DNA of 58,074 nt. Origin: Minisyncoccota bacterium. Lineage in GTDB: Bacteria > Patescibacteriota > Minisyncoccia > 2-02-FULL-40-12 > GWA2-44-9. The position numbers and the translations under genes were made by a program. The notes under the pieces are model-generated. The model was given only the letters and a program-made list of their open reading frames with translations, did no database searches and was not told the DNA's origin. Shown one piece after another: positions 16,452 to 45,652 of this stretch. Every line of letters starts with the position of its first letter. Positions within the stretch are counted from its first letter, which is position 1. The DNA lies in contig JBBDZW010000047.1 of the NCBI GenBank assembly GCA_040899895.1, positions 1 through 58,074 on the forward strand, written 5' to 3'.

Positions 16452-17825
16452 CTACTTTTCAAAAGAATTATAAACACGTTCTTTGATGAGAACCAACTCT
16501 TGTTTGATGTCTTCATCTACAGAAATTCCTCCGCGTATTTTTTCACAAGCATGAATAACCGTAGAGTGATCTCTTCCGCCAAGTTTTTGACCTATCTCAG
16601 GAAAAGAAAGCTTAGTTTCTTCCCTTAAGAGAAACATGGCTACTTGTCTGGGCTTAACCACCTCTTTTTTGCGACTCCTTTTTATTAAATCGTTTGCGGA
16701 GATATTATAAAAATCGGCAACGGCCCTAAGTATTATCTGAGGAGACGTTTTTCTGTACGGCGTGTTTAGATAAGCATTTAAAATATTTTTGACCTCTTTA
16801 AGGTCCGGAATTCTATTATAGATTTGGCTAAATGCGACAACTCTGTTTAATGCTCCTTCAAGTTCTCTGACATTTTTTTGAATATGCGTAGCTATATATG
16901 AAAGGACGTCTTCTTCCAAGGCAGATTTTTTTTCGGAAGCCTTAAATTTGAGAATAGCCAGCCTAGTTTCAAAATCAGGCGCACCAACATCGGCAATCAT
17001 CCCACCTTGGAAGCGGGACTTTAAACGTTCTTCCATTGCCGGAATAGCCTGTGGCGGTCTATCCGAAGACAGTAATATTTGTTTATTTCTGCCGTAGAGC
17101 TCATTAAAAGTTGAAAAAACTATATCTTGAGTTTTTATTTTTCCGGCAATGAACTGAATATCGTCTATCATAAGAAGGTCTAGTTTGGCGTATCTATTTT
17201 TTAAATCTTCAATTGTTTTATTTCCTATAGATTCCACAATGTCGGCGGTTAATCTTTCTGCTGAAATATACAAAACCTTTTTGTCTTTCCCTTCACCCAC
17301 AACCTTGTTTCCTATTGACTGAAGAAGATGGGTTTTTCCCAAACCAACTCCACCGTAAAGAAATAGCGGATTGTAAAGTTTCCCAAGCTCTTTAGTGACT
17401 CTTAAAGAGGCTGCGTGGGCTAACTCATTGTTTGAACCGACAACAAAGGACTCAAATGTATATTTTTTATTTAAATTTGTTTGCTTATCTATGTCATAAT
17501 CTCGGGATGTTTCATCTTTTTCTTCCATCTCGCTATCCAACATAATTTTTGAAAAATCTTGTTTAAGAAGCTCAATTTTAGGCCGGCCTACGGCATATTT
17601 TACTTCTCTTATCTCAGGAGTGAGGACTCTTATTGAATCCAAGATCCTTCTGTTGAATTTATTTTCAAGCCACTCTTTTATAAAACCGTTGGGAACACTA
17701 ACCAAAACACAATTCTTATCACGGGAGAGTATGGTTGTATTTTTAAACCAGGTTGTGAAATTGGCCCTTGATATGGATAATTCCATTTCTCCCAAGACCG
17801 CTTTCCAGAGTTCTTCGTTTGTCAT
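16452..17825 (-). CDS. dnaA: chromosomal replication initiator DnaA
   Basis: Walker A GGVGLGKTHLL, Walker B LLMIDDIQF, sensor motifs, C-terminal DNA-binding domain (GGRDHSTVIHA). Confidence 0.95.
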   Translation of the reverse strand: MTNEELWKAVLGEMELSISRANFTTWFKNTTILSRDKNCVLVSVPNGFIKEWLENKFNRRILDSIRVLTPEIREVKYAVGRPKIELLKQDFSKIMLDSEMEEKDETSRDYDIDKQTNLNKKYTFESFVVGSNNELAHAASLRVTKELGKLYNPLFLYGGVGLGKTHLLQSIGNKVVGEGKDKKVLYISAERLTADIVESIGNKTIEDLKNRYAKLDLLMIDDIQFIAGKIKTQDIVFSTFNELYGRNKQILLSSDRPPQAIPAMEERLKSRFQGGMIADVGAPDFETRLAILKFKASEKKSALEEDVLSYIATHIQKNVRELEGALNRVVAFSQIYNRIPDLKEVKNILNAYLNTPYRKTSPQIILRAVADFYNISANDLIKRSRKKEVVKPRQVAMFLLREETKLSFPEIGQKLGGRDHSTVIHACEKIRGGISVDEDIKQELVLIKERVYNSFEK

Positions 17826-17982: not shown

Positions 17983-18120
17983 ATGAAATCAACTACATAT
18001 AGGCCGAAGAAAAAGAAAAGGAAGTCAAAACACGGATTTTTGGGCCGGATGAACACTAAATCTGGCCGCAAAGTTCTGGCTAGAAGAAGAGCCAAGGGAA
18101 GAAAAAGGCTGACTGTTTAA
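17983..18120 (+). CDS. rpmH: 50S ribosomal protein L34
   Basis: 45-aa ORF below the track cutoff: [45 protein letters not shown]. Classic position upstream of rnpA. Confidence 0.9.
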
Positions 18121-18154
18121 ATATTAAAATATTTAAACATTTAAATATTTCAGC

Positions 18155-18487
18155 ATGGCTTTGAATAAAAAAAATAGGCTTAAAAAAAAGAAAGACTTTG
18201 AAAAAGTCTTTAGTAGGGGCAAGTCCGTAAAAGGTAACTTTTTATTCGTCAAATATCTAGAAAATGATTTTGGATATCCCAGGATCGCTTTTGTTGTTTC
18301 TTCTAAGGTTTCAAAAAAAGCGGTTATTCGGAACAGGGTGAGAAGATTATTGTCTGAAACTTCTCGTATGTGGCTTACAAATATTAGACCCATGGATGTG
18401 GTGGTGATAGTAAATAAAAATATTATTAAAACACCCAAAGACAAGATAACCGAAGATCTGTCGGTTGTCTTTAAAAAAATAAAATGA
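18155..18487 (+). CDS. rnpA: ribonuclease P protein component
   Basis: Basic 110-aa protein with RnpA motifs ([31 protein letters not shown]). Synteny rpmH-rnpA-yidD-yidC. Confidence 0.9.
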
Positions 18488-18711
18488 AAAATGCGGCAAT
18501 TAGGATTATTAATATATATAAAAATAATTCCAGTAGATTTTGGATTGGAAGCCCGTTTATTCTTTTCACAAACTGTAAATATCACCCAACGTGTTCAGAA
18601 TACACCACGCAAGCTATTGAGAAGTACGGGTTTTTCAATGGATTAGGCCGAGGAATTTTGAGGATACTGCGATGCAACCCCTTCTCTAAAGGAGGGATAG
18701 ATTTACCATAA
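18484..18711 (+). CDS. yidD: membrane protein insertion efficiency factor YidD
   Basis: [19 protein letters not shown]...[14 protein letters not shown] signature. Confidence 0.88.
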
Positions 18712-19403
18712 TGATGAATATGTTCAGCGAGATAATTTTTAGACCGCTTTTCAATATTACCGTATTTTTGTACAACATTCTTCCTTGGAATGACTTTGGC
18801 CTGGCAATAGTGGTTTTAACACTAATAATAAAACTAATTTTTATGCCTTTGACCCTCAAGTCAATAAGATCCCAAAAGAAACTTAGCCAACTTAACCCCA
18901 AAATAAAAGAAATCAAGGAAAAATATAAAAATGATACCAGAGCGCAATCTGAAGCCACGATGGCTTTTTATAAAGAAAAAGGAATTAATCCTCTGGCTGG
19001 ATGTTTGCCTCTCCTTATTCAAATCCCAATACTCATAGGTCTTTACCAGGCATTTATAGTGGGTCTTAAACCAGAAAGCTTGACCATGCTTTATGGTTTC
19101 GTAAAAAATCCAGGAATTGTAAACCAGATTTCCTTCGGTTTTATAGATATAGGTTCCAAGATGCCTGTTTTGGCTGTTGTTGCCGGTGGACTACAATTTA
19201 TCCAATCACGAACAAACCCCGCTTTGACCCAGGGTCCCGGCATGGCTCCGGAAATGAAAGCCTTGAACTCTCAAATGTTGTATTTTTTCCCGATTATGAT
19301 AATAATTATTGGTTGGAATTTGCCGGCCGGATTGTTGTTATATTGGCTGGCTACAACAGTTTTTTCAATCATTGAACAAACTTATGCTTCTAAATCTGCA
19401 TAA
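18711..19403 (+). CDS. yidC: membrane insertase YidC/Oxa1 (short form)
   Basis: 230 aa and polytopic. Conserved LKSIRSQKKLSQLNPKIKEIKEKYK amphipathic helix, GCLPLLIQIPI, LLLYW. Confidence 0.9.
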   Translation: MMNMFSEIIFRPLFNITVFLYNILPWNDFGLAIVVLTLIIKLIFMPLTLKSIRSQKKLSQLNPKIKEIKEKYKNDTRAQSEATMAFYKEKGINPLAGCLPLLIQIPILIGLYQAFIVGLKPESLTMLYGFVKNPGIVNQISFGFIDIGSKMPVLAVVAGGLQFIQSRTNPALTQGPGMAPEMKALNSQMLYFFPIMIIIIGWNLPAGLLLYWLATTVFSIIEQTYASKSA

Positions 19404-19408
19404 CCAAC

Positions 19409-19921
19409 ATGGACCTTATTGAAACAAACAAGGAAAAGATAATTGAAACTACAAAAAAGATAGTCGGTTTTATGAACCTTGAGTGTCAGGTGGAACTTCG
19501 GGAGGAGTTGGGTCCTGATAATAAAGTTAATTTGATGGTTTCAATGTACACTCCCGACAACGCCAGGTTTCTAATAGGAAAGAACGGACAAAATTTGAAA
19601 GCTTTTGAGCATTTAGTGAGATCAATATTTATGTCTGCCAAAATCGGAAAAGATGAATCATTTGCGCATACAAACCAAAGAATAACCAGTATTTCCGTTG
19701 ACGTTAATGACTATCGGCGTTCAAGGACTTCTTTTGTGATAGATATGGCTAAACAAGCAGTTTCAAGGGTGAGAAACAGCAGAAAGGCGGAAACGCTTCT
19801 TCCAATGTCGGCCTATGAGAGAAGAATGGTTCACTTGGAATTAGCTTCGTGTCCTGATATTGAGACAGAAAGTATAGGAGATGAGCCTCAAAGGAAAATA
19901 GTAATAAAACCTTTTCCATAA
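19409..19921 (+). CDS. jag: Jag/KhpB-type RNA-binding protein (KH + R3H domains)
   Basis: KH-like GKNGQNLKAFEHLV and R3H-like MSAYERRMVHLEL. Conserved position after yidC. Confidence 0.82.
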   Translation: MDLIETNKEKIIETTKKIVGFMNLECQVELREELGPDNKVNLMVSMYTPDNARFLIGKNGQNLKAFEHLVRSIFMSAKIGKDESFAHTNQRITSISVDVNDYRRSRTSFVIDMAKQAVSRVRNSRKAETLLPMSAYERRMVHLELASCPDIETESIGDEPQRKIVIKPFP

Positions 19922-19935
19922 AAACTTCTGCGGGA

Positions 19936-19975
19936 GCTACCGTGTTAAGGGTGACCCTTAACACGGTAGCTTTTT
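19936..19975. terminator. bidirectional terminator (16-bp perfect stem)
   Basis: gctaccgtgttaaggg-tga-cccttaacacggtagc followed by ttttt, between convergent jag and the PD40 gene. Confidence 0.85.
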
Positions 19976-19978: not shown

Positions 19979-21067
19979 CTATTTCAAGCGAAGGGCGTAG
20001 AGTTTATCATCCATGCCATTGAGGACGATTATAAATTCATCCAGGACGGTCAATAGTAATTGATTGATGATGAGGCTTTTCTTGGGAGATGCGAGAAGCT
20101 CTTTTGTCTTATCTATTCCTATCTTATATATATCCTCTCCCCCGGTTCCAGATCTTGGAACCGAGCATATTACATATTCCCCGCCGAGTCCCCAGGCACA
20201 CTTGGAGGCAGTAGTTGAAACCTCAAGGGAGTTCTGTTTGTGGGAAGCCGAATCTCTGACAAATAGAGCTGTCCCGCTTCCTTTTTTGACAGAATAGAGA
20301 AGCTGGTTTCCGTCGGAGGACCACAGAAGTTCCACTTGACCGTCTTCGTCAATAAGTTTGGCCAGATTTCCCGTGACCGAAAGAGTAAAAACAGTGTCCC
20401 GCCCGTCGATACTTGTCTTTAACGCCAAACTGTCCTGAGACGGCTCGCCTGCCGGCGAGGCAGGCCAGTAAATTTCTAGTCCCACCAGGCGGGTATCCAA
20501 TATTTTTTTGGGAGCATCTCCGTCCGGGGCGGATATATAGATAGCGCTATTCAATCCTTGAGATTTAAAATAAGCCAAGCGGGAACCATCAGGAGAAAAT
20601 ACGGCGGATTTAACCAGTGTTCCAAAATCAGCCGTTTTTCTCGTTTGATAGTTGAAATATTTAAATTGTTTCCCATTTTGGGTCTGAAAAACGCTCACCA
20701 CCTCTTTTTTATTGGGAGACCAAATAGTTTCAATCAAATTTGAGAGCGGAGCGGTCGATATAATTTTTTCCTGCCGGTCTAAGGGGTTGACCTGAAAAGC
20801 TCTTCCGTCTCTTTGGTTGTAATACATCAAAGAATCTTTTTCTTTGGACAAGGTGACGGATAAAACCGAATCTTTGCTTAAGGCGACAAAATCTTTAGAG
20901 AGGTTTTCTTTTGAGGTTTGATTGCCATTAAACTTGTTTAGAATATTGTCACTCCCTATGCTGGCCGGTTGAGCGCTGAAATCATTCCGACTTATAAAAT
21001 ACCCGGCCCCAAAAGCCATTAAAGATAACAGTATCACCAGTGATATTAGTAAGAATTTACTGCTCAT
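19979..21067 (-). CDS. membrane-anchored PD40/TolB-like beta-propeller protein (last gene of T4SS-like operon)
   Basis: N-terminal TM helix. Repeated PD40-type blades (WSPNKKEVVSV, FSPDGSRLAYF, WSSDGNQLLYS). Contains an in-frame GC palindrome encoding PASPAGEP. Confidence 0.6.
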   Translation of the reverse strand: MSSKFLLISLVILLSLMAFGAGYFISRNDFSAQPASIGSDNILNKFNGNQTSKENLSKDFVALSKDSVLSVTLSKEKDSLMYYNQRDGRAFQVNPLDRQEKIISTAPLSNLIETIWSPNKKEVVSVFQTQNGKQFKYFNYQTRKTADFGTLVKSAVFSPDGSRLAYFKSQGLNSAIYISAPDGDAPKKILDTRLVGLEIYWPASPAGEPSQDSLALKTSIDGRDTVFTLSVTGNLAKLIDEDGQVELLWSSDGNQLLYSVKKGSGTALFVRDSASHKQNSLEVSTTASKCAWGLGGEYVICSVPRSGTGGEDIYKIGIDKTKELLASPKKSLIINQLLLTVLDEFIIVLNGMDDKLYALRLK

Positions 21068-21479
21068 ATTCTTCTTTTTCGTCTTGAGGCGGTTTACTCA
21101 TCCCTCTGTACATCCAGATAAGGGACAAGGTTCTAAAAGGAATGAATTCCATAATTGAAGCGAGAATAGGAAAGTTTTCTCCTATAAATCCGACCGCGAA
21201 TCTTTTCCACTGCTTCCTTGCGTTTCTGGACAATCCGATGCCGATGAATATAGCAACATCTACCAGAAATCCAAGAGGTACAGAAATTATTGCCCCCACT
21301 CCCGTGTAGGTTGTGATTATCTCAATTATGTCAACAAAAAGAGCAAAAAGTATCAGAACATAAGAACCGGCACCCATTTTGTAGGGTTCCCCCGACGCTT
21401 CGGTCGGGGCAAGCGGCTCTTGGCTTTCTATGTTTCTCTGTGCCTCAAGTTCATTTTGAATATCATATTCATCTGCCAT
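21057..21479 (-). CDS. small polytopic membrane protein (T4SS-like operon)
   Basis: 140 aa with an acidic N-terminus and about 3 hydrophobic helices. Overlaps the downstream gene by 11 nt and starts 2 nt after the VirB4 stop. Confidence 0.5.
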   Translation of the reverse strand: MADEYDIQNELEAQRNIESQEPLAPTEASGEPYKMGAGSYVLILFALFVDIIEIITTYTGVGAIISVPLGFLVDVAIFIGIGLSRNARKQWKRFAVGFIGENFPILASIMEFIPFRTLSLIWMYRGMSKPPQDEKEEYEQ

Positions 21480-21480
21480 G

Positions 21481-23253
21481 TTAGCTTCTTAATTTTGCCC
21501 ACTCTTCTTTGGCTTTTTCTATTTCAAGAAGTTGTTTCGGGTCAGAAGTGATTATTTGATCTTCGGCATAAGAGGCAACAACTCTGATGCCAATGTGGTT
21601 TTGTCCCAAAAAGAATAGACCAAATCCGACTCTGGCCTCAAGCAGGTAATATTTTTCGGCATCAGTCAGGTTGAATGTCTGCTGAGCGGCATCTATTGTT
21701 GCCGGCGATTGTTTCATTAGGACTTGGATTGAAGAGTTTGCGAGAACGCTTTTTCCAGACTCGCTGGCAAGAAATACAGACACATCTTGAGAAATTGTCG
21801 TCAGACCGGCATAATATTTTCTGGCTCGGCGGGCGATGTTTGCAATAAAATCGGCGCCAATAGGATATTTCATCAACAACCAAGCCTCGTCTATGGCTAA
21901 GATTCTCTTTTTTAAAACTCTTCTCATTGTTGTCCAGACATGGTTTAGAACGAGATACATTGCTATCGGTCTTAATTCTTCTTCCATATCTCTTATGCCG
22001 AATACAACCATTTGATTATCAAGTGAAACATTGGTTGGCCTGTTGAGGAATCCAGCAAACGTTCCTTGGGTGTATTTGCGTAGTCTAATCGCCATTGATT
22101 CAGCTCCAGTAAGGCCTTCAAGAATACTCTGGAGGTCGGACAAAAGAGGTGGTGAAGCCTTTGAAAAATCGCTTTCGGGCGTAATGTCTTTTAGGGCATA
22201 AGTTTGAATAAGAGCTTCGTCCAGTATTGCGCTTTCTTCCGGCGTCAGTTCTCCGAGAATGAGTCTAAGTAGCCCAGTTAGGTCAAGTATATGAGATTTA
22301 AAAACATCGGCCGGCGATTCGTCTGGTTTGGGTACGGGCAAATCAAATGGATTTATATGCTGGTCTGAATTTATGGATATTTTTACCGAAGTTCCTCCAA
22401 TGGTATCGGACAGATATTTATATTCATTTTCCGGGTCTAAAATAATAACCTGGGTTCCAAATATAAGGCTCCTCAATATTTCCAGTTTGACCGTGTACGA
22501 TTTCCCTCCGCCACTTTTCCCGAATACGACTGCGTTGGCGTTTTCCAGATTAAATCGGTCAAATAAAACAAGAGAATTGTTGTGGGTGTTGATGCCGTAA
22601 AGAACCCCGGAATTTGAAGTCAAATCAAAAGAAACGAAAGGAAATATTGAAGAGATGGGCTCAGTATTTAATGATGTGTGAATGTTGAGCTTGTCGTCGT
22701 TTAATGGAAGAGTAGAGGCGAATCCCTCGCCCATTCTAAAGATAGCCGATTTGGGATATACGAGTTGGTACTCCAATAAGCCCCGTATCTTGTTTTCTGT
22801 CTCATCAAGTTCTTTGAGGCTGTTTTCGTAGAGGGTGATATAAACCCCAAGTTCAAAAAACTTGTCTGTCCCCTGTTGAAGTTTGTCTCTTAAGATCTCA
22901 ATGTCTTGCATTGCCGTCTCAAGCATCGGGTCTCTGACCTTACCTTTGGAAGTTTCTTCCATGACCTGCGATTGAAGTCTGGCCAGCTGGTCCCGAAGCT
23001 GTTTCAAAACGGCGACGGTATTTTTGGGGAGTACAAAAATTGATACGTCTAAAACTCTATCAAGGTTCAATATCGGAGAAAACCAATTGGTTTGGAGATA
23101 CCTTGGAAATGTTGCTAAAAATATCGTCCGAGCATACTTGCTTCCAATTTGGAAATAATTTGGGGAAACGCTAAATGCTTCTGGCGCCAGAAGCTCGTCT
23201 AATTTTTTGGTTGCCTGCACCCCCCCTAATTGTGGACTTATCTCGTTAGCCAT
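21481..23253 (-). CDS. virB4: VirB4/TrbE-family conjugation-type ATPase, C-terminal (ATPase) portion
   Basis: Walker A FGKSGGGKSYT and Walker B RILAIDEAWLLM, with the C-terminal VirB4 layout. Start set to ATG 23253 (MANEIS...), which overlaps the upstream ORF stop within ATGGCTAA. Confidence 0.8.
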   Translation of the reverse strand: MANEISPQLGGVQATKKLDELLAPEAFSVSPNYFQIGSKYARTIFLATFPRYLQTNWFSPILNLDRVLDVSIFVLPKNTVAVLKQLRDQLARLQSQVMEETSKGKVRDPMLETAMQDIEILRDKLQQGTDKFFELGVYITLYENSLKELDETENKIRGLLEYQLVYPKSAIFRMGEGFASTLPLNDDKLNIHTSLNTEPISSIFPFVSFDLTSNSGVLYGINTHNNSLVLFDRFNLENANAVVFGKSGGGKSYTVKLEILRSLIFGTQVIILDPENEYKYLSDTIGGTSVKISINSDQHINPFDLPVPKPDESPADVFKSHILDLTGLLRLILGELTPEESAILDEALIQTYALKDITPESDFSKASPPLLSDLQSILEGLTGAESMAIRLRKYTQGTFAGFLNRPTNVSLDNQMVVFGIRDMEEELRPIAMYLVLNHVWTTMRRVLKKRILAIDEAWLLMKYPIGADFIANIARRARKYYAGLTTISQDVSVFLASESGKSVLANSSIQVLMKQSPATIDAAQQTFNLTDAEKYYLLEARVGFGLFFLGQNHIGIRVVASYAEDQIITSDPKQLLEIEKAKEEWAKLRS

Positions 23254-23884
23254 TTTGGTTTTGGAACTCTGTTTTAATGCCCGGGTTATACAGTCCATAA
23301 AAAAGGTTCATTAACTCACCCTCTTCAAGCAGTCTCGTTTTTAACCCTATTCCCACCAAACCGTCATATATCAACTCAACCCTTTGGAGCAGTTGATTCT
23401 TGTATGTTTCAAACTGTTCCGGGTTCAGTTCCTTGGCCACGCTTGATGGTTTGAATATGCTTTTCAGACTATTGGTTATTCCCATTTTTGAGGGAGATTC
23501 AAACACGTAAAAAGGGATAACAATATAAATCTTTTTGGACATTATGTTTGAAAGGTCCGAGAGCTCTTTTATGAACTTTGTGTATTCAACAGACTGAATT
23601 TTAAGCAATTCGCTGGTTAAAGATTCAGTAGATTTTTCTATGAGCTTCAAATAGTCGTCAATATCAAGTTTTCGGGAATTAATCACTATCTGCAAAGGAA
23701 AATCTATAGAGTTGAGAAATCTCTGGAAATTCTGCAGAATGGCTATTTGCTCACCCTCGGAACGCAGTTCAAAGTTTATTGCCGACACCTCAATCACCGC
23801 CCGTAAAGACCCGTTCTTAAGAACGACAATATTGCTTACAATGTTGGCAATGTCCACTAAATTTTTTGTTGACTGTGTGGCCAT
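23246..23884 (-). CDS. VirB4/TrbE N-terminal-domain-like protein (separate ORF)
   Basis: 212 aa. NGSLRAVIEVSAINFELRSEGEQIAILQNFQRFLNSIDFPLQIVINSRKLDIDDYL resembles the N-terminal region of VirB4/PrgJ ATPases. Combined length with the next ORF is about 800 aa. Confidence 0.55.
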   Translation of the reverse strand: MATQSTKNLVDIANIVSNIVVLKNGSLRAVIEVSAINFELRSEGEQIAILQNFQRFLNSIDFPLQIVINSRKLDIDDYLKLIEKSTESLTSELLKIQSVEYTKFIKELSDLSNIMSKKIYIVIPFYVFESPSKMGITNSLKSIFKPSSVAKELNPEQFETYKNQLLQRVELIYDGLVGIGLKTRLLEEGELMNLFYGLYNPGIKTEFQNQNG

Positions 23885-23970
23885 ATTAAATATTTATCAT
23901 TTACCATTTCCCAATTTCCATTGAATTAAACATTGTTTCATTTATTCATTTTCAGAAAATGTCTCAACGG

Positions 23971-24270
23971 CTAAATGGTAAATTTATCTCGCTCTTCTTT
24001 CTTGAATATATATTTTTTGGGATTCAATGCATAGGACAGACCGTACGATGCATAAACCAGCAACGGCACTCCGTCTATTTTCACAAAAGCCAGGGCGGTG
24101 AATATTGCCGCTATGGGCAATGCCAGAGCAATAAACAAAAAACCCTTGGTAAACATAAACAAAAGAAAGAGGACAGCCACCCCTCCGGCTACCCATAAAA
24201 ATTGCATGAGCGTGAACGGCCCGACAATCTTCACTTCGGTCTCAATAAATTGTGGCAGTTGGAATCTCAT
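23971..24270 (-). CDS. PrgI-family (VirB3-like) small membrane protein
   Basis: 99 aa. The N-terminal segment IVGPFTLMQFLWVAGG followed by two TM helices is typical of PrgI/VirB3-like proteins placed upstream of VirB4. Confidence 0.6.
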   Translation of the reverse strand: MRFQLPQFIETEVKIVGPFTLMQFLWVAGGVAVLFLLFMFTKGFLFIALALPIAAIFTALAFVKIDGVPLLVYASYGLSYALNPKKYIFKKEERDKFTI

Positions 24271-24782
24271 TGATTATTGTTTCTGTTTCTTAAGTCTACA
24301 ACATTATTGGGATTGGCGGGGGTATTTTGGTTTTTGGGCGACGGCGGGATATATTGAGATTGAGATGGTAAATCTTTTTGTGTTTTTTTGATATCCTCGA
24401 TTGCGGGACCTAATAGTTCACTGATTATTTTACTCTGTATCTGATATGCGGTGGTGGGGTCGGCCCCCAACTTTTCGGAGACTTTACTGGCCATCTCGTT
24501 GATGGAAAGGTCGCCAAGAAGCACGTCTCTGATTATTCTCGTGACCTCTGTTTTTTGTTCTGAATTTAAATTAAAACTTGGACCCAGGTTTTCTTCTATG
24601 AACTCCGCCGTAGGATGATTCATCAAAATATTCCTGACCGGTTCCGGCAAAGCGCGAACTCTTTGAGTGTACTCCGTAAAGAAGTTCTTTGGTTTAGGCA
24701 AAAACAGGTCCACATTGTACGGGGTTGCATAGGTCGACTCTTCCGGGATATCTTCTTGTTGATCTAAAATTTCTTCGTCCAT
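24267..24782 (-). CDS. hypothetical cytoplasmic protein (T4SS-like operon)
   Basis: 171 aa with an acidic N-terminus, a helical middle and a Pro/Asn-rich C-terminus. 4-nt overlap with the PrgI-like gene. Confidence 0.5.
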   Translation of the reverse strand: MDEEILDQQEDIPEESTYATPYNVDLFLPKPKNFFTEYTQRVRALPEPVRNILMNHPTAEFIEENLGPSFNLNSEQKTEVTRIIRDVLLGDLSINEMASKVSEKLGADPTTAYQIQSKIISELLGPAIEDIKKTQKDLPSQSQYIPPSPKNQNTPANPNNVVDLRNRNNNQ

Positions 24783-24791
24783 GTTATTTAA

Positions 24792-26999
24792 TTAAGGTAA
24801 GGGCACTTTCCCGCCTCGAGCAGCTGGAGGGATTGTTCCTGGGACTGGACTCCTTCCTGCGTATGCGGGATCTAGAATGTCACTGTATAAGATTTCAACT
24901 TTCTTATCACCGCCATCCGTATCAAGAAGCGCCTTCTCTAATCGATTTACATAGTTAGTTCGAGCTTTTCCTCTTAAACGGCCAATATATAGCTTTAAAG
25001 ATTCTTTGAAGGCGGCAGCATTCTCCTTTTCTTCCGGAGTGCCATCTTCTCTCCAAACCCGAAGGTTTATACCGGCTGTATCTTTTATGTCCCCGCTCTT
25101 TAAGGAACCGCCAAGCAAGTGGGCCTTTAATTGGAACTCGTTTGAAGGAGGCGCTTTATGGGCTCTCTCGAATCCTTCTGTTGCTTCTTTGTTAAGATCC
25201 GGGTTGCTAAGGTTATAATCCATAACAAAATCCGGACTGACTTTAGCGATTTCTTTCATAAAGGCTTTACTTTCTGCTGTAGTGTGTCCACCAAATACTC
25301 CCAAACCGGCTTCAAATTGTTCTTTGCTTAAGCCCCCCGCAGCTTTTTTATCAGTCTGCACATATCTGTACATCTCTCTTCTGGCCGCAACACTACTTTT
25401 GAGTGAGGTATAGTCGTAAGGTATTCCCGTCTTTGGGTCTACCCCTTTTTCGGCCGCAGCCATTCTCGCCAGATCTGGCCCTTTCATTTTTGAGAATTTA
25501 GAGGCACCGGCCGTTTTGGCGAAATCCTCCGCGGCCAACGGGTTTTTGGATAACTGTGTCAGAGTTGAAGTGAACATGTCGTTATCCAATTGACCGATCT
25601 TTGCAGCCAGTTTCCTGTAAGCAAACCCGCGAGGATCGGTTGCGTTGAATTGTTTGGCCCTGCTTAAGACATCCGCTTCTGTCAGTTGGCCGTTTTGGTA
25701 TTGGCGTTCAAAGTCGGTGTAGTCCTTACCGGCTCTGTCCACGAAAGCTTTTTCATTGGCGCGGCCTGCTCCCCTGACCCCAAATCTCTCTCCAAATCTT
25801 CCCGTCTGTTGCGCAAGACCGTAGTCCCCGCCGTAAAGCTTCTGGCCGATTCGTCCCGGCAGACCTTCTTGTTTGAACTGCTCCAGTCTTTGCTGTGCTG
25901 CCGTTCCGGCTGCAGTCAATCCGAGCCGGCGAGCGACAACTCCTCGTGACCATTTGGCTACTCCGACTACGCCGGTGCCGGAAAACATCGCCGCTTTCAT
26001 TGCCGTGATGGTGCCTCCGATGAGGAAAATAGCGGCTAAGACATAGAAAAACAATAATTGGAAAAAATTCGGAACGCCTGTTCCAAAATCTTGGTTTCTG
26101 GTTTGACTGGCAATCGCCGTCATTATTTCTGTTTGACTGCTTAAAAAATAAAGTCCGAAATAAAGAAAGAAAAGAAAGATGGGCAGAAACATATTCCAGC
26201 CAATAAATGTGCTCCACCATTTTTTATACATTCCCTGGCCGGCCGGAAAGACGCTTAAAATCCAGGCAATTGGCGAGACAACCAGCAGGGCCCATAATAT
26301 CGGAATTCTTATTAAGGCAAAAATAAAGGCCGTTAGAAGACTAAACAAGAATGTAAGGACAAGAATTAAAGAAAATATAATTTGAATTAAGGCGCCGGAA
26401 ATTGTTTGGTCGGTGCCATTGGCTCCGGAAGTTAAAGCAGCTTCAAACCCCGAAGAGGTAGCACCCGGCAATAAATTTGACGGGTTCAACCCTTGACCAA
26501 GCTGAGCGGACATATCACCTATTGAGGTAAGAAATGTGTTTGAGAGTACTTGGGAGGCGTCTATTACTAAAACCCCCAGAACTAGGCTGAAATTAATGAG
26601 TAACGCGGCGATTAAAAATTTAGGAAACAGCGTTCTGGCATCGTATTTAGAGATGTTAAATATCGTCGCAAAGGCCATCATGATGAGGGCGACGATAAAA
26701 AACATATTGGCGAAGTTGCGCATTATTTTCCAGCTTTCATCTATAACGGCTATACCTCCATCCGGGTAAACACGAATATTTATTACGGTATTTAAACCAA
26801 TCGCCAAAAAAGATATAAAACTACCGGCTACGGAGAATAATATAAATGCGGTATAGGCAAAAATATTAAGTACGGCACTATACCCAAATTCCAAAATACT
26901 GATTGCTTTGGCTTCGTGCGTCGGCAGTAAAACCAAAACAACCGCAAACAGAATTGCTAAATAATATTTTCGGTGTTTTTTAATGTTATTCCTTATCAT
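24792..26999 (-). CDS. TrbL/VirB6-like polytopic membrane protein with large C-terminal soluble domain
   Basis: Signal/anchor ending HEAKA and at least 6 hydrophobic helices in the first ~360 aa. The following ~375 aa are hydrophilic, rich in Gly/Ala/Lys and have no TM segment. Confidence 0.55.
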   Translation of the reverse strand: MIRNNIKKHRKYYLAILFAVVLVLLPTHEAKAISILEFGYSAVLNIFAYTAFILFSVAGSFISFLAIGLNTVINIRVYPDGGIAVIDESWKIMRNFANMFFIVALIMMAFATIFNISKYDARTLFPKFLIAALLINFSLVLGVLVIDASQVLSNTFLTSIGDMSAQLGQGLNPSNLLPGATSSGFEAALTSGANGTDQTISGALIQIIFSLILVLTFLFSLLTAFIFALIRIPILWALLVVSPIAWILSVFPAGQGMYKKWWSTFIGWNMFLPIFLFFLYFGLYFLSSQTEIMTAIASQTRNQDFGTGVPNFFQLLFFYVLAAIFLIGGTITAMKAAMFSGTGVVGVAKWSRGVVARRLGLTAAGTAAQQRLEQFKQEGLPGRIGQKLYGGDYGLAQQTGRFGERFGVRGAGRANEKAFVDRAGKDYTDFERQYQNGQLTEADVLSRAKQFNATDPRGFAYRKLAAKIGQLDNDMFTSTLTQLSKNPLAAEDFAKTAGASKFSKMKGPDLARMAAAEKGVDPKTGIPYDYTSLKSSVAARREMYRYVQTDKKAAGGLSKEQFEAGLGVFGGHTTAESKAFMKEIAKVSPDFVMDYNLSNPDLNKEATEGFERAHKAPPSNEFQLKAHLLGGSLKSGDIKDTAGINLRVWREDGTPEEKENAAAFKESLKLYIGRLRGKARTNYVNRLEKALLDTDGGDKKVEILYSDILDPAYAGRSPVPGTIPPAARGGKVPLP

Positions 27000-27008
27000 T
27001 TATGGCGC

Positions 27009-28583
27009 TTAAAAAGCTTGTTCTGGAGGAGGATTTTCTCCGCCACCTCCACCCCCAGCGCCCGTGATACAGCTCAACGGAATGGTGCCTACATAGTCAG
27101 TACCAACAACATCTCTTAGTGGCGCGTTTCCTGCTCCTGAGTTAATAATCACGTCATATCTTTCCCAGTTGGGTTCATTAGGTCTTTGAAGCGCAATCAG
27201 ATCTCCTTGGTTAGGATTGTCATTTCCATTCAAGACTGTGGCGGTAGCATTAAAACCTCTTCGTTCTAGTTCTGGGCCTAAATAGCTTAGAAAAACAAAA
27301 CCATTATTGGCGGTGTTAAGTTCATCGGCTATCCCTCCTGGGTTAGCAGTAACAACAGCACCAATCGCGCCATCAAGTTCCCCCTCATAGATTGGGCCCG
27401 TATTTGTTCCGGCACAGCGACCACCGCCACCAGTGCCAGGGTCTGGCAAATCAACATCATAATCGTATTTTTCATTAGGAATTATGTAGTCTCCTTCGTT
27501 GGGGTTGCTTAAGTTTTCAAGTCTATTAAATAAAACTTCCACCGCCGTAGCGATTAGTTCATTCAGTTCATCTACATTGGCAACCCACGCCAATTCCTGT
27601 TGGAATGTAGCCGCTAGGGCGTCGCTTATTACTGTTCCGGGGGTTTTAATATCCTTGTAGACCAAACATTTGCCGTTTGTATCCCTTTGCAAGCAACTAT
27701 CGTTTGCGTTTTCTCCGCTTCTTCCAATAAGACCTCTGTTCGCCAAAGACTGGTTTATGTCGGTTGATTCTTCCAGAGAGCGTTGTTTGGAGGCTTCATC
27801 TAAAGATTTAAATAGTGCCCCATAAAAATTATTTTGAGGTTCAAGCAAACGGTTCCAGGCATTCCACCCGCCGTTGTCTTTAAAGTTGCTTTGATAGTTA
27901 GTTAAGTTAAATCCGGAAGGCATCGTACAGCCGGTGCTTACTTGGAACGAATCAAAACCACCGGTGCGTGTTTGAGTGTTTGTCGGCAAGAGAGCTTTAC
28001 CATTCGCATCAAAAGTGTTTTTTAAATTTTGGCTAAAATAGTTACACAATTTTGTATTGGATAAAATGGATCTGAATATTCCTTCTCCACGATATTGAGC
28101 ATCAGTCTGAAAACTTCTCCAGTTTTGTATAAAGGCCGGCCCCCCATTTCGTCCACTTGTTCGGGCAATGTTTACAATATCAACATTCATTTGGCTCAGA
28201 ATTTCTCTGGCGGCGCATCGAGCGATTACATCTTGAACTTTTTCTTTATCTTTATAGGTTGGATTAAAAACGACATCGTTTGTCGGAACGGAATTTGCTC
28301 CAACCAAAGTCCCTCCTGTACCCGATAATTTATTTAAAAACCCTCCTAATTTCGGAAATCTTTTTGCCAGACCCTTTAACCCGTCATTTATTTTGTCACT
28401 GAGCCACTGGGCTGTTTTTCCAGCAGAAACACAGCCGGCGAATTTTGCGCCACTTTTAATACTGGAAGCATCCAGTGCCGCCCCAGCCGGTATTGGAGAG
28501 GCAAGGTAAGGCAAAAGAACGGAAAACAAAAAGATGGTTAGACCCACGGATACGGATAATCTTTTTGTTATAATATTTTTCAT
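27009..28583 (-). CDS. exported protein of unknown family with Gly-rich C-terminus
   Basis: Signal peptide (...SPIPAGAALD), scattered Cys pairs, two poly-Gly runs (GTGGGGRC; GAGGGGGGENPPP). Translationally coupled on both sides. Confidence 0.5.
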   Translation of the reverse strand: MKNIITKRLSVSVGLTIFLFSVLLPYLASPIPAGAALDASSIKSGAKFAGCVSAGKTAQWLSDKINDGLKGLAKRFPKLGGFLNKLSGTGGTLVGANSVPTNDVVFNPTYKDKEKVQDVIARCAAREILSQMNVDIVNIARTSGRNGGPAFIQNWRSFQTDAQYRGEGIFRSILSNTKLCNYFSQNLKNTFDANGKALLPTNTQTRTGGFDSFQVSTGCTMPSGFNLTNYQSNFKDNGGWNAWNRLLEPQNNFYGALFKSLDEASKQRSLEESTDINQSLANRGLIGRSGENANDSCLQRDTNGKCLVYKDIKTPGTVISDALAATFQQELAWVANVDELNELIATAVEVLFNRLENLSNPNEGDYIIPNEKYDYDVDLPDPGTGGGGRCAGTNTGPIYEGELDGAIGAVVTANPGGIADELNTANNGFVFLSYLGPELERRGFNATATVLNGNDNPNQGDLIALQRPNEPNWERYDVIINSGAGNAPLRDVVGTDYVGTIPLSCITGAGGGGGGENPPPEQAF

Positions 28584-29491
28584 TGCTCAAAAACGGTAGC
28601 TTTTACGTTTAGTTTTTGTTTGTTAATAATATCAAGGTATGTATCTGCAAGTTTTGGCAAAACATCCATATAGTCAGGCAATCTGTTTAGGGCAATCACG
28701 GCCTTAATCGGATCTTTTGACCCAAAAGTCAGAGATTTATTTATTTCCATCAATTCGGCGGCGAGCTTTAAAAATCCCAAATGGGATTGCTGCCAGTTTT
28801 TAGGGACATAGATTCCGGAAGCATCGTTAAAGATACTTTGAAATTCCGATGTTTTGGAATTAAAATATCCCACCATTCCAATATCGCTAAATCCGGCATC
28901 GCCGATAATGTTCAGATTTTTTTCAAAATGATTCATTTCGTCAAAATAGGCCAGAGTAAATCTTTTAAACAATTCGGAAAATGATTTAAGATAAATTTCC
29001 TGATTATTTTTACTGGATTCTATTGTCGGCAAATTGAGGCCGGTAATATTTTGCTGAAAATCTTTATTTGCGTCTTCAAGGATATTAGCTAATAAATTGT
29101 TAACGGAAGATGTAAAATCAGGATTACTGGGTTTAAGTGAACCCTCGTATAATCCCGAAAGTGTGAGTTTTGAAAATTTCTCGGTTACATTTCCGTTGTT
29201 TAGCAAATCGTCCGGACCGGGTTTTAGCGGATCGTGGCCCGACGACACTTCTTCCCCATCCAAAAAACCATCCCCATCCGTGTCGGGTTTGTTGGGGTCT
29301 GTATTCCAATAAGATTCTTCTTTGTTTGAGAGGCCGTCTTTATCCCAGTCGTTGTCAACAATATCCCAGGCGGATTGTTTTATGTTTGTTAGACTCGGTC
29401 CGCCAAATCTAAAGGAGTTTATTAGAGTTAAAACCGAAAAGAGGGCGATTATCGCCATAAAACCCAAAATTACTTTAATTTTATAAGTCAT
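28580..29491 (-). CDS. membrane-anchored protein with thrombospondin type-3-like Ca-binding repeats
   Basis: N-terminal TM helix. DNDWDKDGLSNKEE and DTDGDGFLDGEE match the DxDxDGxxDxxE repeat. Confidence 0.5.
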   Translation of the reverse strand: MTYKIKVILGFMAIIALFSVLTLINSFRFGGPSLTNIKQSAWDIVDNDWDKDGLSNKEESYWNTDPNKPDTDGDGFLDGEEVSSGHDPLKPGPDDLLNNGNVTEKFSKLTLSGLYEGSLKPSNPDFTSSVNNLLANILEDANKDFQQNITGLNLPTIESSKNNQEIYLKSFSELFKRFTLAYFDEMNHFEKNLNIIGDAGFSDIGMVGYFNSKTSEFQSIFNDASGIYVPKNWQQSHLGFLKLAAELMEINKSLTFGSKDPIKAVIALNRLPDYMDVLPKLADTYLDIINKQKLNVKATVFEQ

Positions 29492-29567
29492 TTTGCGGGA
29501 AAAATTAGATTTTCCCTATGATTAGTATAACATTTCCAATATCAATAAGAGTGTTGATAGTTTGTTC

Positions 29568-30143
29568 TTAATCGCTAGTCCCGATTTTGTAGATTACTCC
29601 TCCTTCGGGGCACGATAAGCTAAAGTTGTAAAAGTCTGCGACGCCTATTGTTATGACGGGTATTTGGTCCAATGCGTCGTTTATTGGATTAAGCACGCCT
29701 CTTTCGAAAAATTCATTGTTGAACGCCAATCCTAGCGTCCATACCCCTACCTTGTTCTGGTTTTTATTTGCGTATATTTGCGAAATGAAAGGAAATGTGA
29801 AAATGTCGTCTGCTGGTATGCCGGGACGGTCTACATCTATCTTTGTTCCCGTAATAGGAATTGGAATGCCGGGGCCTACATAACATACACCAACAGGAGG
29901 ACAGCCACGAACAGTCGTCCAGTAATGTATTTTACAGGCTACGCCCGTATCAGTTATCTTTCCACCAAAAGGAAACGTAACCCTCGCGGTATCCACTGAT
30001 TTTAAAAGATTGGCTACGGCTCGGATGGCGTTTACGACTCTTCTAATAATATTAAAATCTAAACCGTGAGCGGGCTCTGAGACTACAAAAGCGGCCGATA
30101 TTATTACCAACACTAAGATTGTGGCAACAACTTTTTTGGGCAT
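29568..30143 (-). CDS. exported hypothetical protein
   Basis: 191 aa with a signal/anchor helix and conserved-looking Cys residues. TAATG overlap with the upstream gene. Confidence 0.45.
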   Translation of the reverse strand: MPKKVVATILVLVIISAAFVVSEPAHGLDFNIIRRVVNAIRAVANLLKSVDTARVTFPFGGKITDTGVACKIHYWTTVRGCPPVGVCYVGPGIPIPITGTKIDVDRPGIPADDIFTFPFISQIYANKNQNKVGVWTLGLAFNNEFFERGVLNPINDALDQIPVITIGVADFYNFSLSCPEGGVIYKIGTSD

Positions 30144-31111
30144 TAAAATATTTTTTTAATAATGAGTAGAATTTTATTAAAAATACTAACAACAAAATTT
30201 CCACTAGAAACCGGAGGCGCTTTTTGTGGGTCTGTTGTTTCTTGGGCTGAAATAGTCGGACTGATTAATGGCGCGGGAAATAATCCTGTCGGTCTACTCG
30301 AACTCGGAGAAATAAAAACGCTATCCGGGGTTTTTATCGGACTGGAGCTCGGCGTTTTTCCCGGAAGAGGAGACGGTTGGGCTGACGGTGGTTTTAGGGC
30401 GACACAATTGCCATTTTGGGCATAGTAATTAGCGTCATATTTTGATTTGCAGGCCATATTTGCTTCTACGCATCTTTCCCCGAACAAAAAGTAGCCGTTA
30501 TCGCAAAGACAGGTGTCGGTTTCAGAATTATAGGTGGAGTATCCGTAAAAGAGAGGACAAAACACAGCTTTTAATATGGGTTGCACTAATCTGTTTCCGG
30601 GCAAACTGAAGTTCGGGTTGTTATTGTCAACCAAGCATGACTGAAACTCCGCATTCAAAGACCGAAACTCTTGTATTTGTTGCCCGCATTTGTTTAGTTC
30701 ATTTTTACCAAGTTCAGAATTTTCTAACCCCTGGGCCCTTAATCGTTCTAATACACTATTGTAGGACTGGCTGTTCATACACCCCATTTCTGATGGAGGA
30801 AAACAACCGCTTGTCGTCATAAAGTCCGCTTGTTGTTGAGTTAGAAGTTCTATTTCTTCTTGGCACTGAGGAACGGCGTATATAAAAGGCAATGAATCGT
30901 CTTTGGTTCCGTCTTTGCAGGTAACCGAGGCATCTGGCTTTAAAACTGCGCAATCCACTCCCCCGTGTCCGACACAGACATCAATAGTAGGTGCCGTTGT
31001 TAAAGCGAAGACATCGGTAAAATCATTGCCGTAGCCACTCACAAAAAGAGAAAGCAAAAAAGAGAGCACAACAAAACCTGTACCGATAACAATAAAATTT
31101 CTTGCCGTCAT
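30143..31111 (-). CDS. exported Cys-rich protein with Pro/Ser-rich C-terminal tail (first gene of T4SS-like operon)
   Basis: Start set to ATG 31111 (MTARNF...) to avoid overlapping rsmA. TM/signal helix, more than 15 Cys, C-terminal PPSAQPSPLPGKTPSSSPIKTP. Confidence 0.45.
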   Translation of the reverse strand: MTARNFIVIGTGFVVLSFLLSLFVSGYGNDFTDVFALTTAPTIDVCVGHGGVDCAVLKPDASVTCKDGTKDDSLPFIYAVPQCQEEIELLTQQQADFMTTSGCFPPSEMGCMNSQSYNSVLERLRAQGLENSELGKNELNKCGQQIQEFRSLNAEFQSCLVDNNNPNFSLPGNRLVQPILKAVFCPLFYGYSTYNSETDTCLCDNGYFLFGERCVEANMACKSKYDANYYAQNGNCVALKPPSAQPSPLPGKTPSSSPIKTPDSVFISPSSSRPTGLFPAPLISPTISAQETTDPQKAPPVSSGNFVVSIFNKILLIIKKIF

Positions 31112-31119: not shown

Positions 31120-31902
31120 TTATAGAACAGAAGAAATTTTTAACCAATCTGATATGGCCAGTTCTTCCGGCCTTGTTTCCGGGTTGATGCCCAGTGTTTT
31201 GAGATTGATTTCGGGGAGAGTGTTTTTGAGTTGCTTTCTTTTTCCGGCGAAAGCCTTCTTGGCTGTCTGCAGTATCTTCTCATTTCTCGCCCTTGTTGTT
31301 GGTTGCAAGTCGTGGGTTATCAGTTTTATTATTGCGGAATCCACTTTTGGTACAGGTCGAAAACTGTTTTTGGAAACGTTCATTATTATCTCCGGCTCGG
31401 AATACAACTGAATGGAAAGAGCCAAAAGATTCATATCGCCCGGCTTGGCCGTTATTCTTTTGGCCACCTCTTTCTGGACGGTTAAGACGATTAGTTTTGG
31501 AGTTGGCCATTTGCTGAATATTTTTCTTAGGAAATGAGAGGTTATGTAATATGGGATATTACCAATTACTTTGTAATTGGAATTTCTAATTTCTAATTTC
31601 AAATTTCTAAACAATTTTTCAATATCCAAATCCAAAACATCACCTTCAACTATCTCTACATTTCCGGCGTAGGCTGAATTTGGAGAAAATTCATTTTTAA
31701 GGAATTCAATAAGGCGATGATCTTTTTCTATTGCAATAACTCGGCCAGCTTTTTCAGCAAGTTTTTTGGTCAGATTGCCTGTCCCGGGGCCTATTTCTAT
31801 AACAATGTCTTCTGGGCCGACTTCAGCGGCCTGAACTATTTTATCTAAAACCCCTTCGTTGATAAGAAAGTTCTGGCCTAAAGATTTTTTTGCCCTAATC
31901 AT
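31120..31902 (-). CDS. rsmA: 16S rRNA (adenine1518/1519-N6)-dimethyltransferase RsmA/KsgA
   Basis: KKSLGQNFL, SAM-binding IEIGPGTGNLT, GNIPYYITS. Carries an in-frame AATTTCT x4 repeat. Confidence 0.9.
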   Translation of the reverse strand: MIRAKKSLGQNFLINEGVLDKIVQAAEVGPEDIVIEIGPGTGNLTKKLAEKAGRVIAIEKDHRLIEFLKNEFSPNSAYAGNVEIVEGDVLDLDIEKLFRNLKLEIRNSNYKVIGNIPYYITSHFLRKIFSKWPTPKLIVLTVQKEVAKRITAKPGDMNLLALSIQLYSEPEIIMNVSKNSFRPVPKVDSAIIKLITHDLQPTTRARNEKILQTAKKAFAGKRKQLKNTLPEINLKTLGINPETRPEELAISDWLKISSVL

Positions 31903-34059: not shown

Positions 34060-34527
34060 CAAGAGAGAGAATTTCTTCATTGTGTCATACATGACTGGCA
34101 GTTCCAAATAATCTATGCCTATTGCTGTCCATGCCAGCCATACCGGCAATATTATATCAGAAGTGTCCTTGAATTGCTTGATGACGAATTCATCCGTTAT
34201 CCAGAACAAGTGAAGCCATTGAGAGTTTAGCAGAACAAGAAACATTACGCTTTTCTTGATATCCCTTCTCGCGCGCAACTCATTCATGTATACCAGTGAG
34301 ACGGCAATGAGCGCCGGTATCTCCGTGTAATCAACCAGAATTATCAGCAGTTCCCAATTTGCGCCAAGGTTGGAAAATCCATAATCCAAAGTGCCTGGCA
34401 GGACAACGTTTGTGGTCAGCCAGAGAAGATGTATCAGCTGCCAGGAAAAAAGAATAGCGGCTATGCCGATATTTAGGTGAAGATTCTCTTCATACCAAAA
34501 CCAAAATTTATTTATTACTTTTTTCAA
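34045..34527 (-). CDS. hypothetical integral membrane protein
   Basis: 160 aa with 4 hydrophobic helices. Its 3' end overlaps tRNA-Ala on the opposite strand by 15 nt. Confidence 0.5.
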   Translation of the reverse strand: MKKVINKFWFWYEENLHLNIGIAAILFSWQLIHLLWLTTNVVLPGTLDYGFSNLGANWELLIILVDYTEIPALIAVSLVYMNELRARRDIKKSVMFLVLLNSQWLHLFWITDEFVIKQFKDTSDIILPVWLAWTAIGIDYLELPVMYDTMKKFSLLWTRR

Positions 34528-42700: not shown

Positions 42701-42701
42701 A

Positions 42702-43241: not shown

Positions 43242-43251
43242 TTATTTTTTG

Positions 43252-44696: not shown

Positions 44697-44757
44697 TTTG
44701 GGCAGACCTGTTGCCTAATATTTTTCGTTACGAAATTTTTAAATTTTGAGACAGAAG

Positions 44758-44809: not shown

Positions 44810-44811
44810 TC

Positions 44812-45570: not shown

Positions 45571-45601
45571 AGCTTTGTCAGATAATTAATTATATCAGAT
45601 T

Positions 45602-45638: not shown

Positions 45639-45652
45639 AATAATTAAGGAGT

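Follow-up and report, generated by a model that had tools for sequence, protein, structure and literature searches.

A Patescibacteria-type, probably non-conjugative type IV secretion cluster beside the replication origin genes of an uncultured Candidatus Paceibacterota bacterium

Is a compact block of conjugation-related genes beside the replication origin of an uncultured bacterium part of a mobile element, or does it encode a machine for contact with a host? We addressed this question for positions 19979-31111 of contig JBBDZW010000047.1, whose entire 58,074-bp length (hereafter, the window) was analyzed and whose record is labelled as a Candidatus Paceibacterota metagenome-assembled genome (MAG). 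A sequence-only reading had described the block as a minimal, relaxase-less operon resembling a type IV secretion system (T4SS) and likelier to serve host interaction than conjugation, and profile searches, comparative genomics, and the literature (PMC12102498, PMC10633639, PMC12857230) support that description. We conclude that the block very probably encodes a non-conjugative, host-interaction T4SS of the Patescibacteria type. The lineage of this system probably descends from monoderm (MPF-FATA) conjugation machinery whose DNA-processing module was lost, and its predicted products make up a cytoplasmic-membrane translocon set: a VirB4 ATPase, a TrsD-like VirB4 N-terminal domain, a PrgI/VirB3 anchor, and a putative extended VirB6 channel protein.

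The block holds 11 closely packed open reading frames (ORFs) on the minus strand, here called g1 to g11, which are read in one direction from 31111 down to 19979. An inverted repeat follows the last of them.

30143-31111, minus strand: g1, 322-amino-acid (aa) Cys-rich protein, anchored at the N-terminus (hydrophobic residues 6-24), whose tail is rich in Pro and Ser
29568-30143, minus strand: g2, 191-aa secreted protein that contains Cys (hydrophobic N-terminal stretch, residues 5-23)
28580-29491, minus strand: g3, protein with an N-terminal anchor, TSP3 (calcium-binding) repeats, and a helical domain at the C-terminus (from Pfam)
27009-28583, minus strand: g4, exported 524-aa protein without recognizable family or fold; its cysteines are conserved (from a homologue alignment)
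24792-26999, minus strand: g5, putative extended VirB6/TrbL-like polytopic membrane protein (from homologues, topology, and fold)
24267-24782, minus strand: g6, 171-aa soluble protein with an acidic N-terminus and no recognized family, between virB6 and prgI
23971-24270, minus strand: g7, small PrgI/VirB3-like protein that spans the membrane with two helices (from Pfam)
23246-23884, minus strand: g8, TrsD-like protein, homologous to the N-terminal domain of VirB4 but encoded by its own gene (from NCBIfam)
21481-23253, minus strand: g9, VirB4 ATPase, monoderm MPF-FATA, CD1110-like (from profile, PDB, and motifs)
21057-21479, minus strand: g10, 140-aa small membrane protein (from alignment A2 of 32 positional homologues)
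19979-21067, minus strand: g11, PD40/TolB-like beta-propeller with an N-terminal anchor, at the end of the cluster (from Pfam and NCBIfam)
19935-19971, no strand: I10, perfect 18-nucleotide (nt) inverted repeat (100% complementary, 1-nt loop) in the 57-nt spacer where jag and g11 converge

The earlier description of eleven co-directional genes with near-continuous stop/start overlaps is accurate. The junction of g1 and g2 is TAATG (1-nt overlap at 30143), those of g3/g4 and g6/g7 are ATGA (4-nt overlaps, 28583/28580 and 24270/24267), and g8/g9 and g10/g11 overlap by 8 nt (23253/23246) and 11 nt (21067/21057), respectively; the other spacings are +76 nt (g2/g3), +9 nt (both g4/g5 and g5/g6), +86 nt (g7/g8), and +1 nt (g9/g10). 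Since g1 starts only 8 nt past the ksgA stop, the cluster extends a long co-directional block. At its 3' end, the inverted repeat probably acts as a bidirectional terminator hairpin. Consensus scans were uninformative for both promoters and terminators, with promoter sites within one standard deviation of shuffled sequences and terminator sites only ~1.5 standard deviations above them.

The ATPase g9 matched the NCBIfam model conju_CD1110 at 1.1e-103 (347.9 bits, cutoff 325) over profile positions 185-733 of 752, and this FATA-type model was the best curated model for the protein. Pfam matches to P-loop_TraG (2.4e-20) and AAA_10 were also found, the Walker A (GKSGGGKS) and Walker B (ILAIDE) motifs are both intact, and the nearest solved structure is the Thermoanaerobacter VirB4 ATPase domain (4AG5, 8.4e-41). 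Translation may start either at ATG 23253, which gives the 8-nt overlap, or at ATG 23298. As predicted from its sequence, g9 is without the VirB4 N-terminal domain, which g8 would supply: g8 matched NCBIfam VirB4_plasma (Mbov_0397; 2.6e-13) at profile positions 102-233, as well as CD1110 positions 9-119 and TrsD/TraD (7e-07), and together the two proteins tile one full-length VirB4.

A scan of a genome collection with this VirB4 returned 80 related loci with VirB4 proteins 53-93% identical, 40 of which (the close loci) have a VirB4 at least 67% identical. All 80 come from MAG records of uncultured organisms, mostly with Patescibacteria-type names and some labelled Saccharibacteria or Bdellovibrionales. 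In 76/78 related loci, a TrsD-like ORF lies apart from and upstream of virB4, at spacings from -49 to +853 nt and in differing frames, which rules out a VirB4 gene broken by a frameshift or decaying into a pseudogene. The only in-frame TrsD-VirB4 fusions, in loci L020 (5154-7292) and L021 (9326-11728), encode a single full-length VirB4 and support the view that TrsD is a detached VirB4 N-terminal domain. The "VirB4 in two pieces" of the sequence-only reading therefore holds insofar as the pieces tile VirB4 and the ATPase passes its curated cutoff, but what is present is a conserved TrsD-like/virB4 pair and not a disrupted gene. TrsD is the name of this gene in the literature, where it lies next to virB4 in 1,664 Patescibacteria cases (PMC12102498). 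As an observation on the family, split and fused states of TrsD/VirB4 both occur within it.

The PrgI/VirB3-like call on g7 passed the curated Pfam threshold for PrgI (9.6e-11, 42.5 bits, cutoff 27). Its hydrophobic segments span residues 15-33 and 45-63, and a homologue is present in 72/80 loci. The VirB6 identity of g5, drawn from homologues and a predicted model, is the weakest of the core assignments. Its position and topology fit VirB6: residues 1-335 contain ~6-8 hydrophobic helices, and the C-terminal ~400 residues form a hydrophilic, all-helical domain, the same layout as in the "extended VirB6" architecture described in PMC12857230. Among 120 listed homologues, PF19590 was found on 25 and PF04610 on 2, these proteins being 34-70% identical to g5, and rescanning gave a TrbL match in 4/28 homologues (best 1.6e-06). 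An AlphaFold model of g5 (mean pLDDT, the model's per-residue confidence, 76) had R388 TrwI/VirB6 chains as its most probable Foldseek matches, at probabilities of 0.77-0.92 but E values of ~1; for 7o3v_F, 8rt9_F, and 8rtd_L, probabilities of 0.84-0.92 and E values of 0.6-1.1 came with low target-normalised TM-scores of 0.33-0.42. Thus, homologue domains and a weak fold match speak for the TrbL/VirB6-like label, but no direct profile match does. The C-terminal half of g5 (24792-25800, residues ~390-710) is a well-predicted all-helical domain (pLDDT 85-91) with the conserved motifs ATDPxGYAYRK and FGGHTTAEGK and had no convincing structural match. The adjacent g6 protein has no hydrophobic segment, gave no match in Pfam or NCBIfam and an empty result in a profile search of the PDB, and has homologues at the same position in 19/40 close loci.

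Is the DNA-processing part of a conjugation system encoded nearby? Pfam scans at E cut-offs of 0.001-0.1 covered ~60 of the 65 called ORFs of the window, leaving out five short ones (60-93 aa), and gave no family match to a type IV coupling protein (T4CP, or VirD4), relaxase, integrase, VirB11, VirB1, or VirB2, in agreement with the sequence-only reading. The ~20 kb and ~27 kb flanks hold housekeeping and type IV pilus (T4P) genes and no relaxase, T4CP, or integrase. Of the findings that would have overturned that reading, neither a relaxase, T4CP, or integrase beside the cluster nor a failure of the VirB4 and PrgI assignments was seen, with VirB6 backed by homologues and a weak fold match. 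The same Pfam scans gave no VirB8 match, and no cluster protein had a Pfam, NCBIfam, or PDB-profile match to a VirB8-like protein (NTF2-like domain), a component rarely found in Patescibacteria (PMC12102498). Neither of the pilin families PF18895 and PF04956 matched in the window, while PF18895 was detected in a positive control (L059:11730-12143). A jackhmmer search started from this L059 pilin brought up 47 pilin-like ORFs in ~30 more distant loci, but no close (Yanofskybacteria-type) locus contained one, nor did the window, where all 325 ORFs of 40 aa or longer were searched. PF18895-type pilins, often two per locus, occur in distant Paceibacteria loci (L038-L080, including L059; VirB4 53-58% identical) and are absent from the window and from Yanofskybacteria-type loci L001-L037, L039, and L066, which looks like a lineage-level loss or relocation of pilin genes in the latter.

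The surroundings of the cluster bear on whether it is an integrative and conjugative element (ICE):

15132-16223: dnaN
16452-17825: dnaA
17983-18120, plus strand: rpmH
18155-18487, plus strand: rnpA
18484-18711, plus strand: yidD
31120-31902: ksgA

On one side, rpmH, rnpA, yidD, yidC, and jag run on the plus strand, divergent from dnaA-dnaN; on the other side lie ksgA and pcrA. We found that all close loci with enough genes (30/30) keep the order pcrA-ksgA-(variable)-TSP3-g4-VirB6-g6-PrgI-TrsD-VirB4-g10-PD40, collinear and on a single strand, and that the origin genes hold the same relative position in close loci. VirB4 identity follows DnaA identity (Spearman 0.94, n=41). Mean identities across the 40 close loci are 76% for VirB4 and 74% for DnaA, and only 32-38% for VirB6, g4, the TSP3 protein, and the PD40 protein. 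As judged from these sequence comparisons, the tracking of DnaA by VirB4 and their matching conservation point to vertical descent under strong purifying selection. Being collinear in 30/30 loci and co-diverging with DnaA, the cluster is part of the core genome and not an integrative element. Moreover, genes such as dnaA, dnaN, PBP, and ruvABC would not interrupt an integrative element, which makes an ICE unlikely although the contig ends where the window ends.

Composition and boundaries were also examined. The sequence-only reading had remarked on GC-rich patches in the operon, and a local excess is real (0.50 in the 25-26 kb bin against 0.41 overall), but it bears no sign of foreign origin: the cluster genes are typical, with a mean GC of 0.421 against 0.406 +/- 0.033 for the remaining genes and an ordinary tetranucleotide distance. 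The patch at 25.3-26.0 kb encodes an Ala/Gly/Arg/Lys-rich segment of VirB6, and that at 27.0-27.5 kb a Gly/Asn/Pro-rich tail. Horizontal acquisition, as suspected from these patches, is ruled out by the ordinary cluster GC and tetranucleotides, the patches being an effect of amino-acid composition. No att-like or flanking direct repeats were found around the cluster, and an Rfam scan returned tRNAs only, none adjoining it. The most deviant composition in the contig belongs to the AT-rich 15-20 kb region, where 15132-17825 and 17983-19921 form a classic origin region; 7/18 near-consensus DnaA boxes of the window fall at 14-18 kb, and a minus-strand 150-aa ORF at 18133-18585 is a spurious shadow of rnpA.

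What, then, are the remaining proteins of the cluster? The sequence-only reading had treated the four upstream proteins as cargo. All four (g1-g4) carry N-terminal hydrophobic segments, which suggests Sec-dependent export or anchoring. With such signal peptides or anchors they are unlikely T4SS cargo, and two of the four (the TSP3 and 524-aa proteins) are conserved syntenic components; g1-g4 more probably belong to the envelope or surface portion of the apparatus. The g3 protein matched Pfam TSP3_bac (1.2e-11), has its anchor at residues 7-25, and is present and collinear in 29/40 close loci. In a profile comparison with the PDB only its repeat region matched (7c7u, 2e-06), the C-terminal domain matching nothing. 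The g4 protein, present in 30/40 close loci, has three invariant cysteines (C180, C297, and C306) and 90 homologues, none of which carries a Pfam domain. Its AlphaFold model is moderate (mean pLDDT 71), and neither a PDB profile search nor Foldseek (best E 0.9) gave a match. A VirB1-type hydrolase or another known fold was considered for g4 and is unsupported, as there is no Pfam, PDB-profile, or Foldseek match (E<0.9) and no invariant His for an NlpC/P60 or CHAP triad.

The 5' end of the cluster is more variable. The g1 protein had no Pfam match, and tblastn found no counterpart for it in the 80 related loci. Elsewhere it has relatives, with 25 cluster representatives at E<=1e-30 among 1.84 billion proteins; this small family of similarly sized proteins rules out g1 as an orphan, though the family lies outside all 80 related loci. 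The g2 protein belongs to a small family with the motif FGG[RK]I...C...GTS, which occurs patchily and directly upstream of the TSP3 gene. It is 49% identical to L003:3477-4037, has shorter relatives (115-131 aa) at the same position in L007, L009, L012, L018, L037, and L039, and neither g2 nor any family member matched Pfam. Between ksgA and the TSP3 gene, other genomes have either an empty slot, a g2-like gene, or a ~495-aa ORF, and because of this variation the conserved unit is the nine genes g3-g11 with a variable 5' slot. Where the window has g1 and g2, other loci have polytopic ORFs of 480-540 aa (L004:2076-3563, L006:1818-3335, L014:1595-3088, L024:1572-3056, L026:1141-2757, and L030:2480-4066), which by eye only resemble apolipoprotein N-acyltransferase (Lnt, CN-hydrolase type).

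At the 3' end, g10 and g11 agree with the earlier statement that the operon closes with a small membrane protein and an anchored PD40 propeller. A g10-type protein follows virB4 in most related loci examined and shares a pattern of an acidic N-terminal tail, a hydrophobic hairpin with a D..D/E motif, a basic loop, and an E..P....P segment; none of its 39 database homologues has an assigned name. When its 32 positional homologues were tested, none matched a Pfam family, and because no Pfam family matches any member, g10 is not a PF18895 or PF04956 pilin. A VirB2 pilin was rejected for g10 on this result (0/32), while the true pilin used as a control was detected. The g11 protein matched Pfam PD40 (9e-05) and the NCBIfam TolB propeller (2.7e-10, partial match), has its anchor at residues 7-25, and is found in 38/40 close loci at a mean identity of only 32%.

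We next compared the locus with known systems. Quinonero-Coronel et al. (2025, Microb Genom; PMC12102498) described a Patescibacteria-specific VirB4 clade within MPF-FATA that is associated with TrsD, PrgI/VirB3, and VirB6 and almost always lacks relaxases, and they placed the Paceibacteria T4SS near dnaA, dnaN, ksgA, rnpA, and rpmH. The present cluster is alike in having a FATA-type VirB4 after separate TrsD-like and PrgI/VirB3 genes, a putative VirB6 two genes upstream, no relaxase or T4CP nearby, and dnaA, dnaN, ksgA, rnpA, and rpmH as neighbors. The order given in their Table S3 (VirB6, unknown, VirB3, TrsD, VirB4, unknown) is the same as here, and their dataset takes in Yanofskybacteria genomes. 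The same study reports pilins near virB4 in 1,135 assemblies and an association with VirB1 in Paceibacteria, whereas in the window and its close relatives no PF18895 pilin and no VirB1-like hydrolase was detectable. The accessory set (TSP3 protein, 524-aa protein, small membrane protein, and PD40 propeller) is unnamed in the main text and in the portion of the supplement consulted.

In Saccharibacteria, transposon sequencing (Tn-seq) showed that Southlakia epibionticum ML1 cannot grow as an epibiont without cluster SEML1_0006-0019 (Wang et al. 2023, Cell; PMC10633639). That cluster is likewise chromosomal, origin-proximal, and similar to Gram-positive conjugation systems, is without a recognizable coupling protein or relaxase, and co-occurs with type IV pili. 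Unlike the present locus, it has an essential pilin array together with peptidase and lysozyme genes downstream of virB4, none of which is detectable here; its essentiality comes from Tn-seq, whereas the locus of this organism is known from sequence. The Gram-positive T4SSs themselves (pGO1/pIP501 trsC-trsD-trsE, Clostridioides difficile CTn2 CD1110, and pCF10 prgH-prgI-prgJ) resemble the cluster, whose VirB4 has CD1110 as its best model (above cutoff), whose TrsD-like gene and VirB4 follow each other in the pGO1 order, and which has a PrgI-family VirB3 and no outer-membrane core components. In contrast to them, the cluster has no relaxase, T4CP, VirB1-type hydrolase, VirB8-like protein (PrgL/TraM), or PrgB-type adhesin, and is chromosomal and vertically inherited rather than carried on a mobile element. 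Bordetella Ptl and Brucella VirB are precedents for effector T4SSs without a coupling protein, and the substrate exported by Ptl has already passed the membrane by Sec; unlike the present system, both are diderm machines with VirB7/VirB9/VirB10 core complexes and an unrelated VirB4 subfamily.

These comparisons suggest how the machine may work. The VirB4/TrsD pair would dock on PrgI and VirB6 at the cytoplasmic membrane and power assembly and translocation through the VirB6 channel. The envelope proteins, probably exported by Sec, would carry the conduit through the wall and touch the host cell. In this way the machine would serve to transfer proteins or other macromolecules, and not to conjugate DNA, between an epibiont and its bacterial host.

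Several points weigh against a non-conjugative, host-interaction T4SS. No T4SS of Paceibacteria has a demonstrated function, and essentiality has been shown for one Saccharibacterium only. The genome could encode a T4CP outside the window, which is one 58-kb contig, and T4CP homologues are present in most genomes, far from virB4 (PMC12102498). At E<=0.1, g5 itself had no Pfam match. Finally, because no VirB8-, VirB1-, or VirB2-like component was recognized in the cluster, the extracellular part of the model is drawn from position and predicted topology.

This apparent lack of components could be read in a further way. The Yanofskybacteria-type lineage, to which the window belongs, may tentatively be credited with a T4SS that has neither pilin nor T4CP and in which a conserved, lineage-specific module, namely the ~400-residue helical C-terminal domain of VirB6, g10, the TSP3 protein, the 524-aa protein, and the anchored PD40 propeller, replaces the VirB1, VirB2, VirB8, and coupling functions; we consider this possible but doubtful. 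If it were true, the module would be a new kind of envelope-spanning host-contact apparatus.

Could the machine work inward? A T4SS for DNA uptake or nucleotide scavenging, like ComB of Helicobacter pylori or archaeal Ced, would provide host DNA to a bacterium unable to make nucleotides, and the idea has been raised in a PNAS perspective (PMC11665869). The lack of a relaxase and a T4CP is shared with ComB and Ced, and a type IV pilus cluster and a putative ComF-like gene lie on this contig too. The g9 protein is weakly similar to CedB (2.3e-05, 23 bits against a cutoff of 700) and CedD (3e-04, 20 against 600), but the CedB match is generic P-loop similarity, and no CedA/A1/A2-like or ComB-specific (ComB2-4, 6-10) component was recognized. 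Patescibacteria also have a conventional competence system of T4P and ComEC, which explains transformation of S. epibionticum, and comEC is dispensable for the growth of that species (PMC12857230). We therefore regard DNA import as unlikely.

A machine that mainly assembles a surface structure, such as a pilus or adhesin, and does not translocate substrates into the host has in its favor the VirB2-like pilin arrays of many Patescibacteria T4SS loci (PMC12102498, PMC10633639), the pilin-like ORFs in ~30 more distant related loci, and the several exported or anchored proteins encoded in the cluster. This too we hold to be improbable, given that neither the window nor the close loci have a VirB2-like pilin with the positive control working, and that g10 and g2 match no pilin family. 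As for a decayed or incomplete ICE whose relaxase, T4CP, and integrase lie elsewhere or were recently lost, the homology of VirB4, TrsD, and PrgI to Gram-positive conjugation proteins and a window that stops at the contig ends, with the remaining genome outside view, are consistent with it, but it is excluded for practical purposes by origin-region synteny in 30/30 close loci, co-divergence with DnaA, a VirB4 conserved as strongly as DnaA, normal GC and tetranucleotide composition, no integrase, att-like repeat, or adjoining tRNA, intact ORFs with overlapping stop/start junctions throughout, and the scarcity of relaxases in the group (103/3,035 genomes; PMC12102498).

Elsewhere on the contig, a type IV pilus cluster (42344-53172, minus strand) lies 11 kb from the T4SS and on the same strand. 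The two envelope machines shown to be essential in S. epibionticum are likewise a T4P and a T4SS. The genes of this cluster and other features of the contig are as follows:

52045-53172, minus strand: PilM
51381-51947, minus strand: candidate PilN, by position only, with no PilN match
50870-51394, minus strand: PilO
48759-50507, minus strand: PilB
47666-48727, minus strand: PilT-like protein
46325-47533, minus strand: PilC
45653-46150, minus strand: pilin
44812-45570, minus strand: prepilin peptidase PilD
42344-44696, minus strand: five small ORFs, three with an N-terminal methylation (prepilin) motif
7701-9362, plus strand: second PilB-like ATPase
53149-53811, plus strand: phosphoribosyltransferase-domain protein that may be ComF-like, by reading only
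34524-35390, minus strand: protein with a homing-endonuclease-associated HNH_repeat domain
56004-56498, plus strand: HNH endonuclease next to a tRNA
56626-57093, plus strand: HicB/HicA antitoxin-toxin pair

The last three are small genes of mobile or selfish type scattered among housekeeping genes.

What does the locus add to what is known of these systems? Its architecture, including the origin-proximal position, is already published (PMC12102498): the locus is genuine and not new, and it opens no new question and reveals no new kind of system. Possibly new, at the level of the lineage, are the apparent lack of pilins in Yanofskybacteria-type loci and the accessory set that goes unnamed in the parts of PMC12102498 consulted. 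Reviews regard the role of the Patescibacteria T4SS as unknown and propose effector delivery or nucleic-acid import (PMC11665869, PMC12857230). Few conserved machines could account for the way in which ultrasmall epibionts exploit their hosts; this T4SS is one of them, and it is essential in the sole species tested. The locus described here is a clean, intact example from Paceibacteria, and its nine syntenic genes with a variable slot, together with the apparent lack of pilins, could help to define the minimal parts of such a machine.

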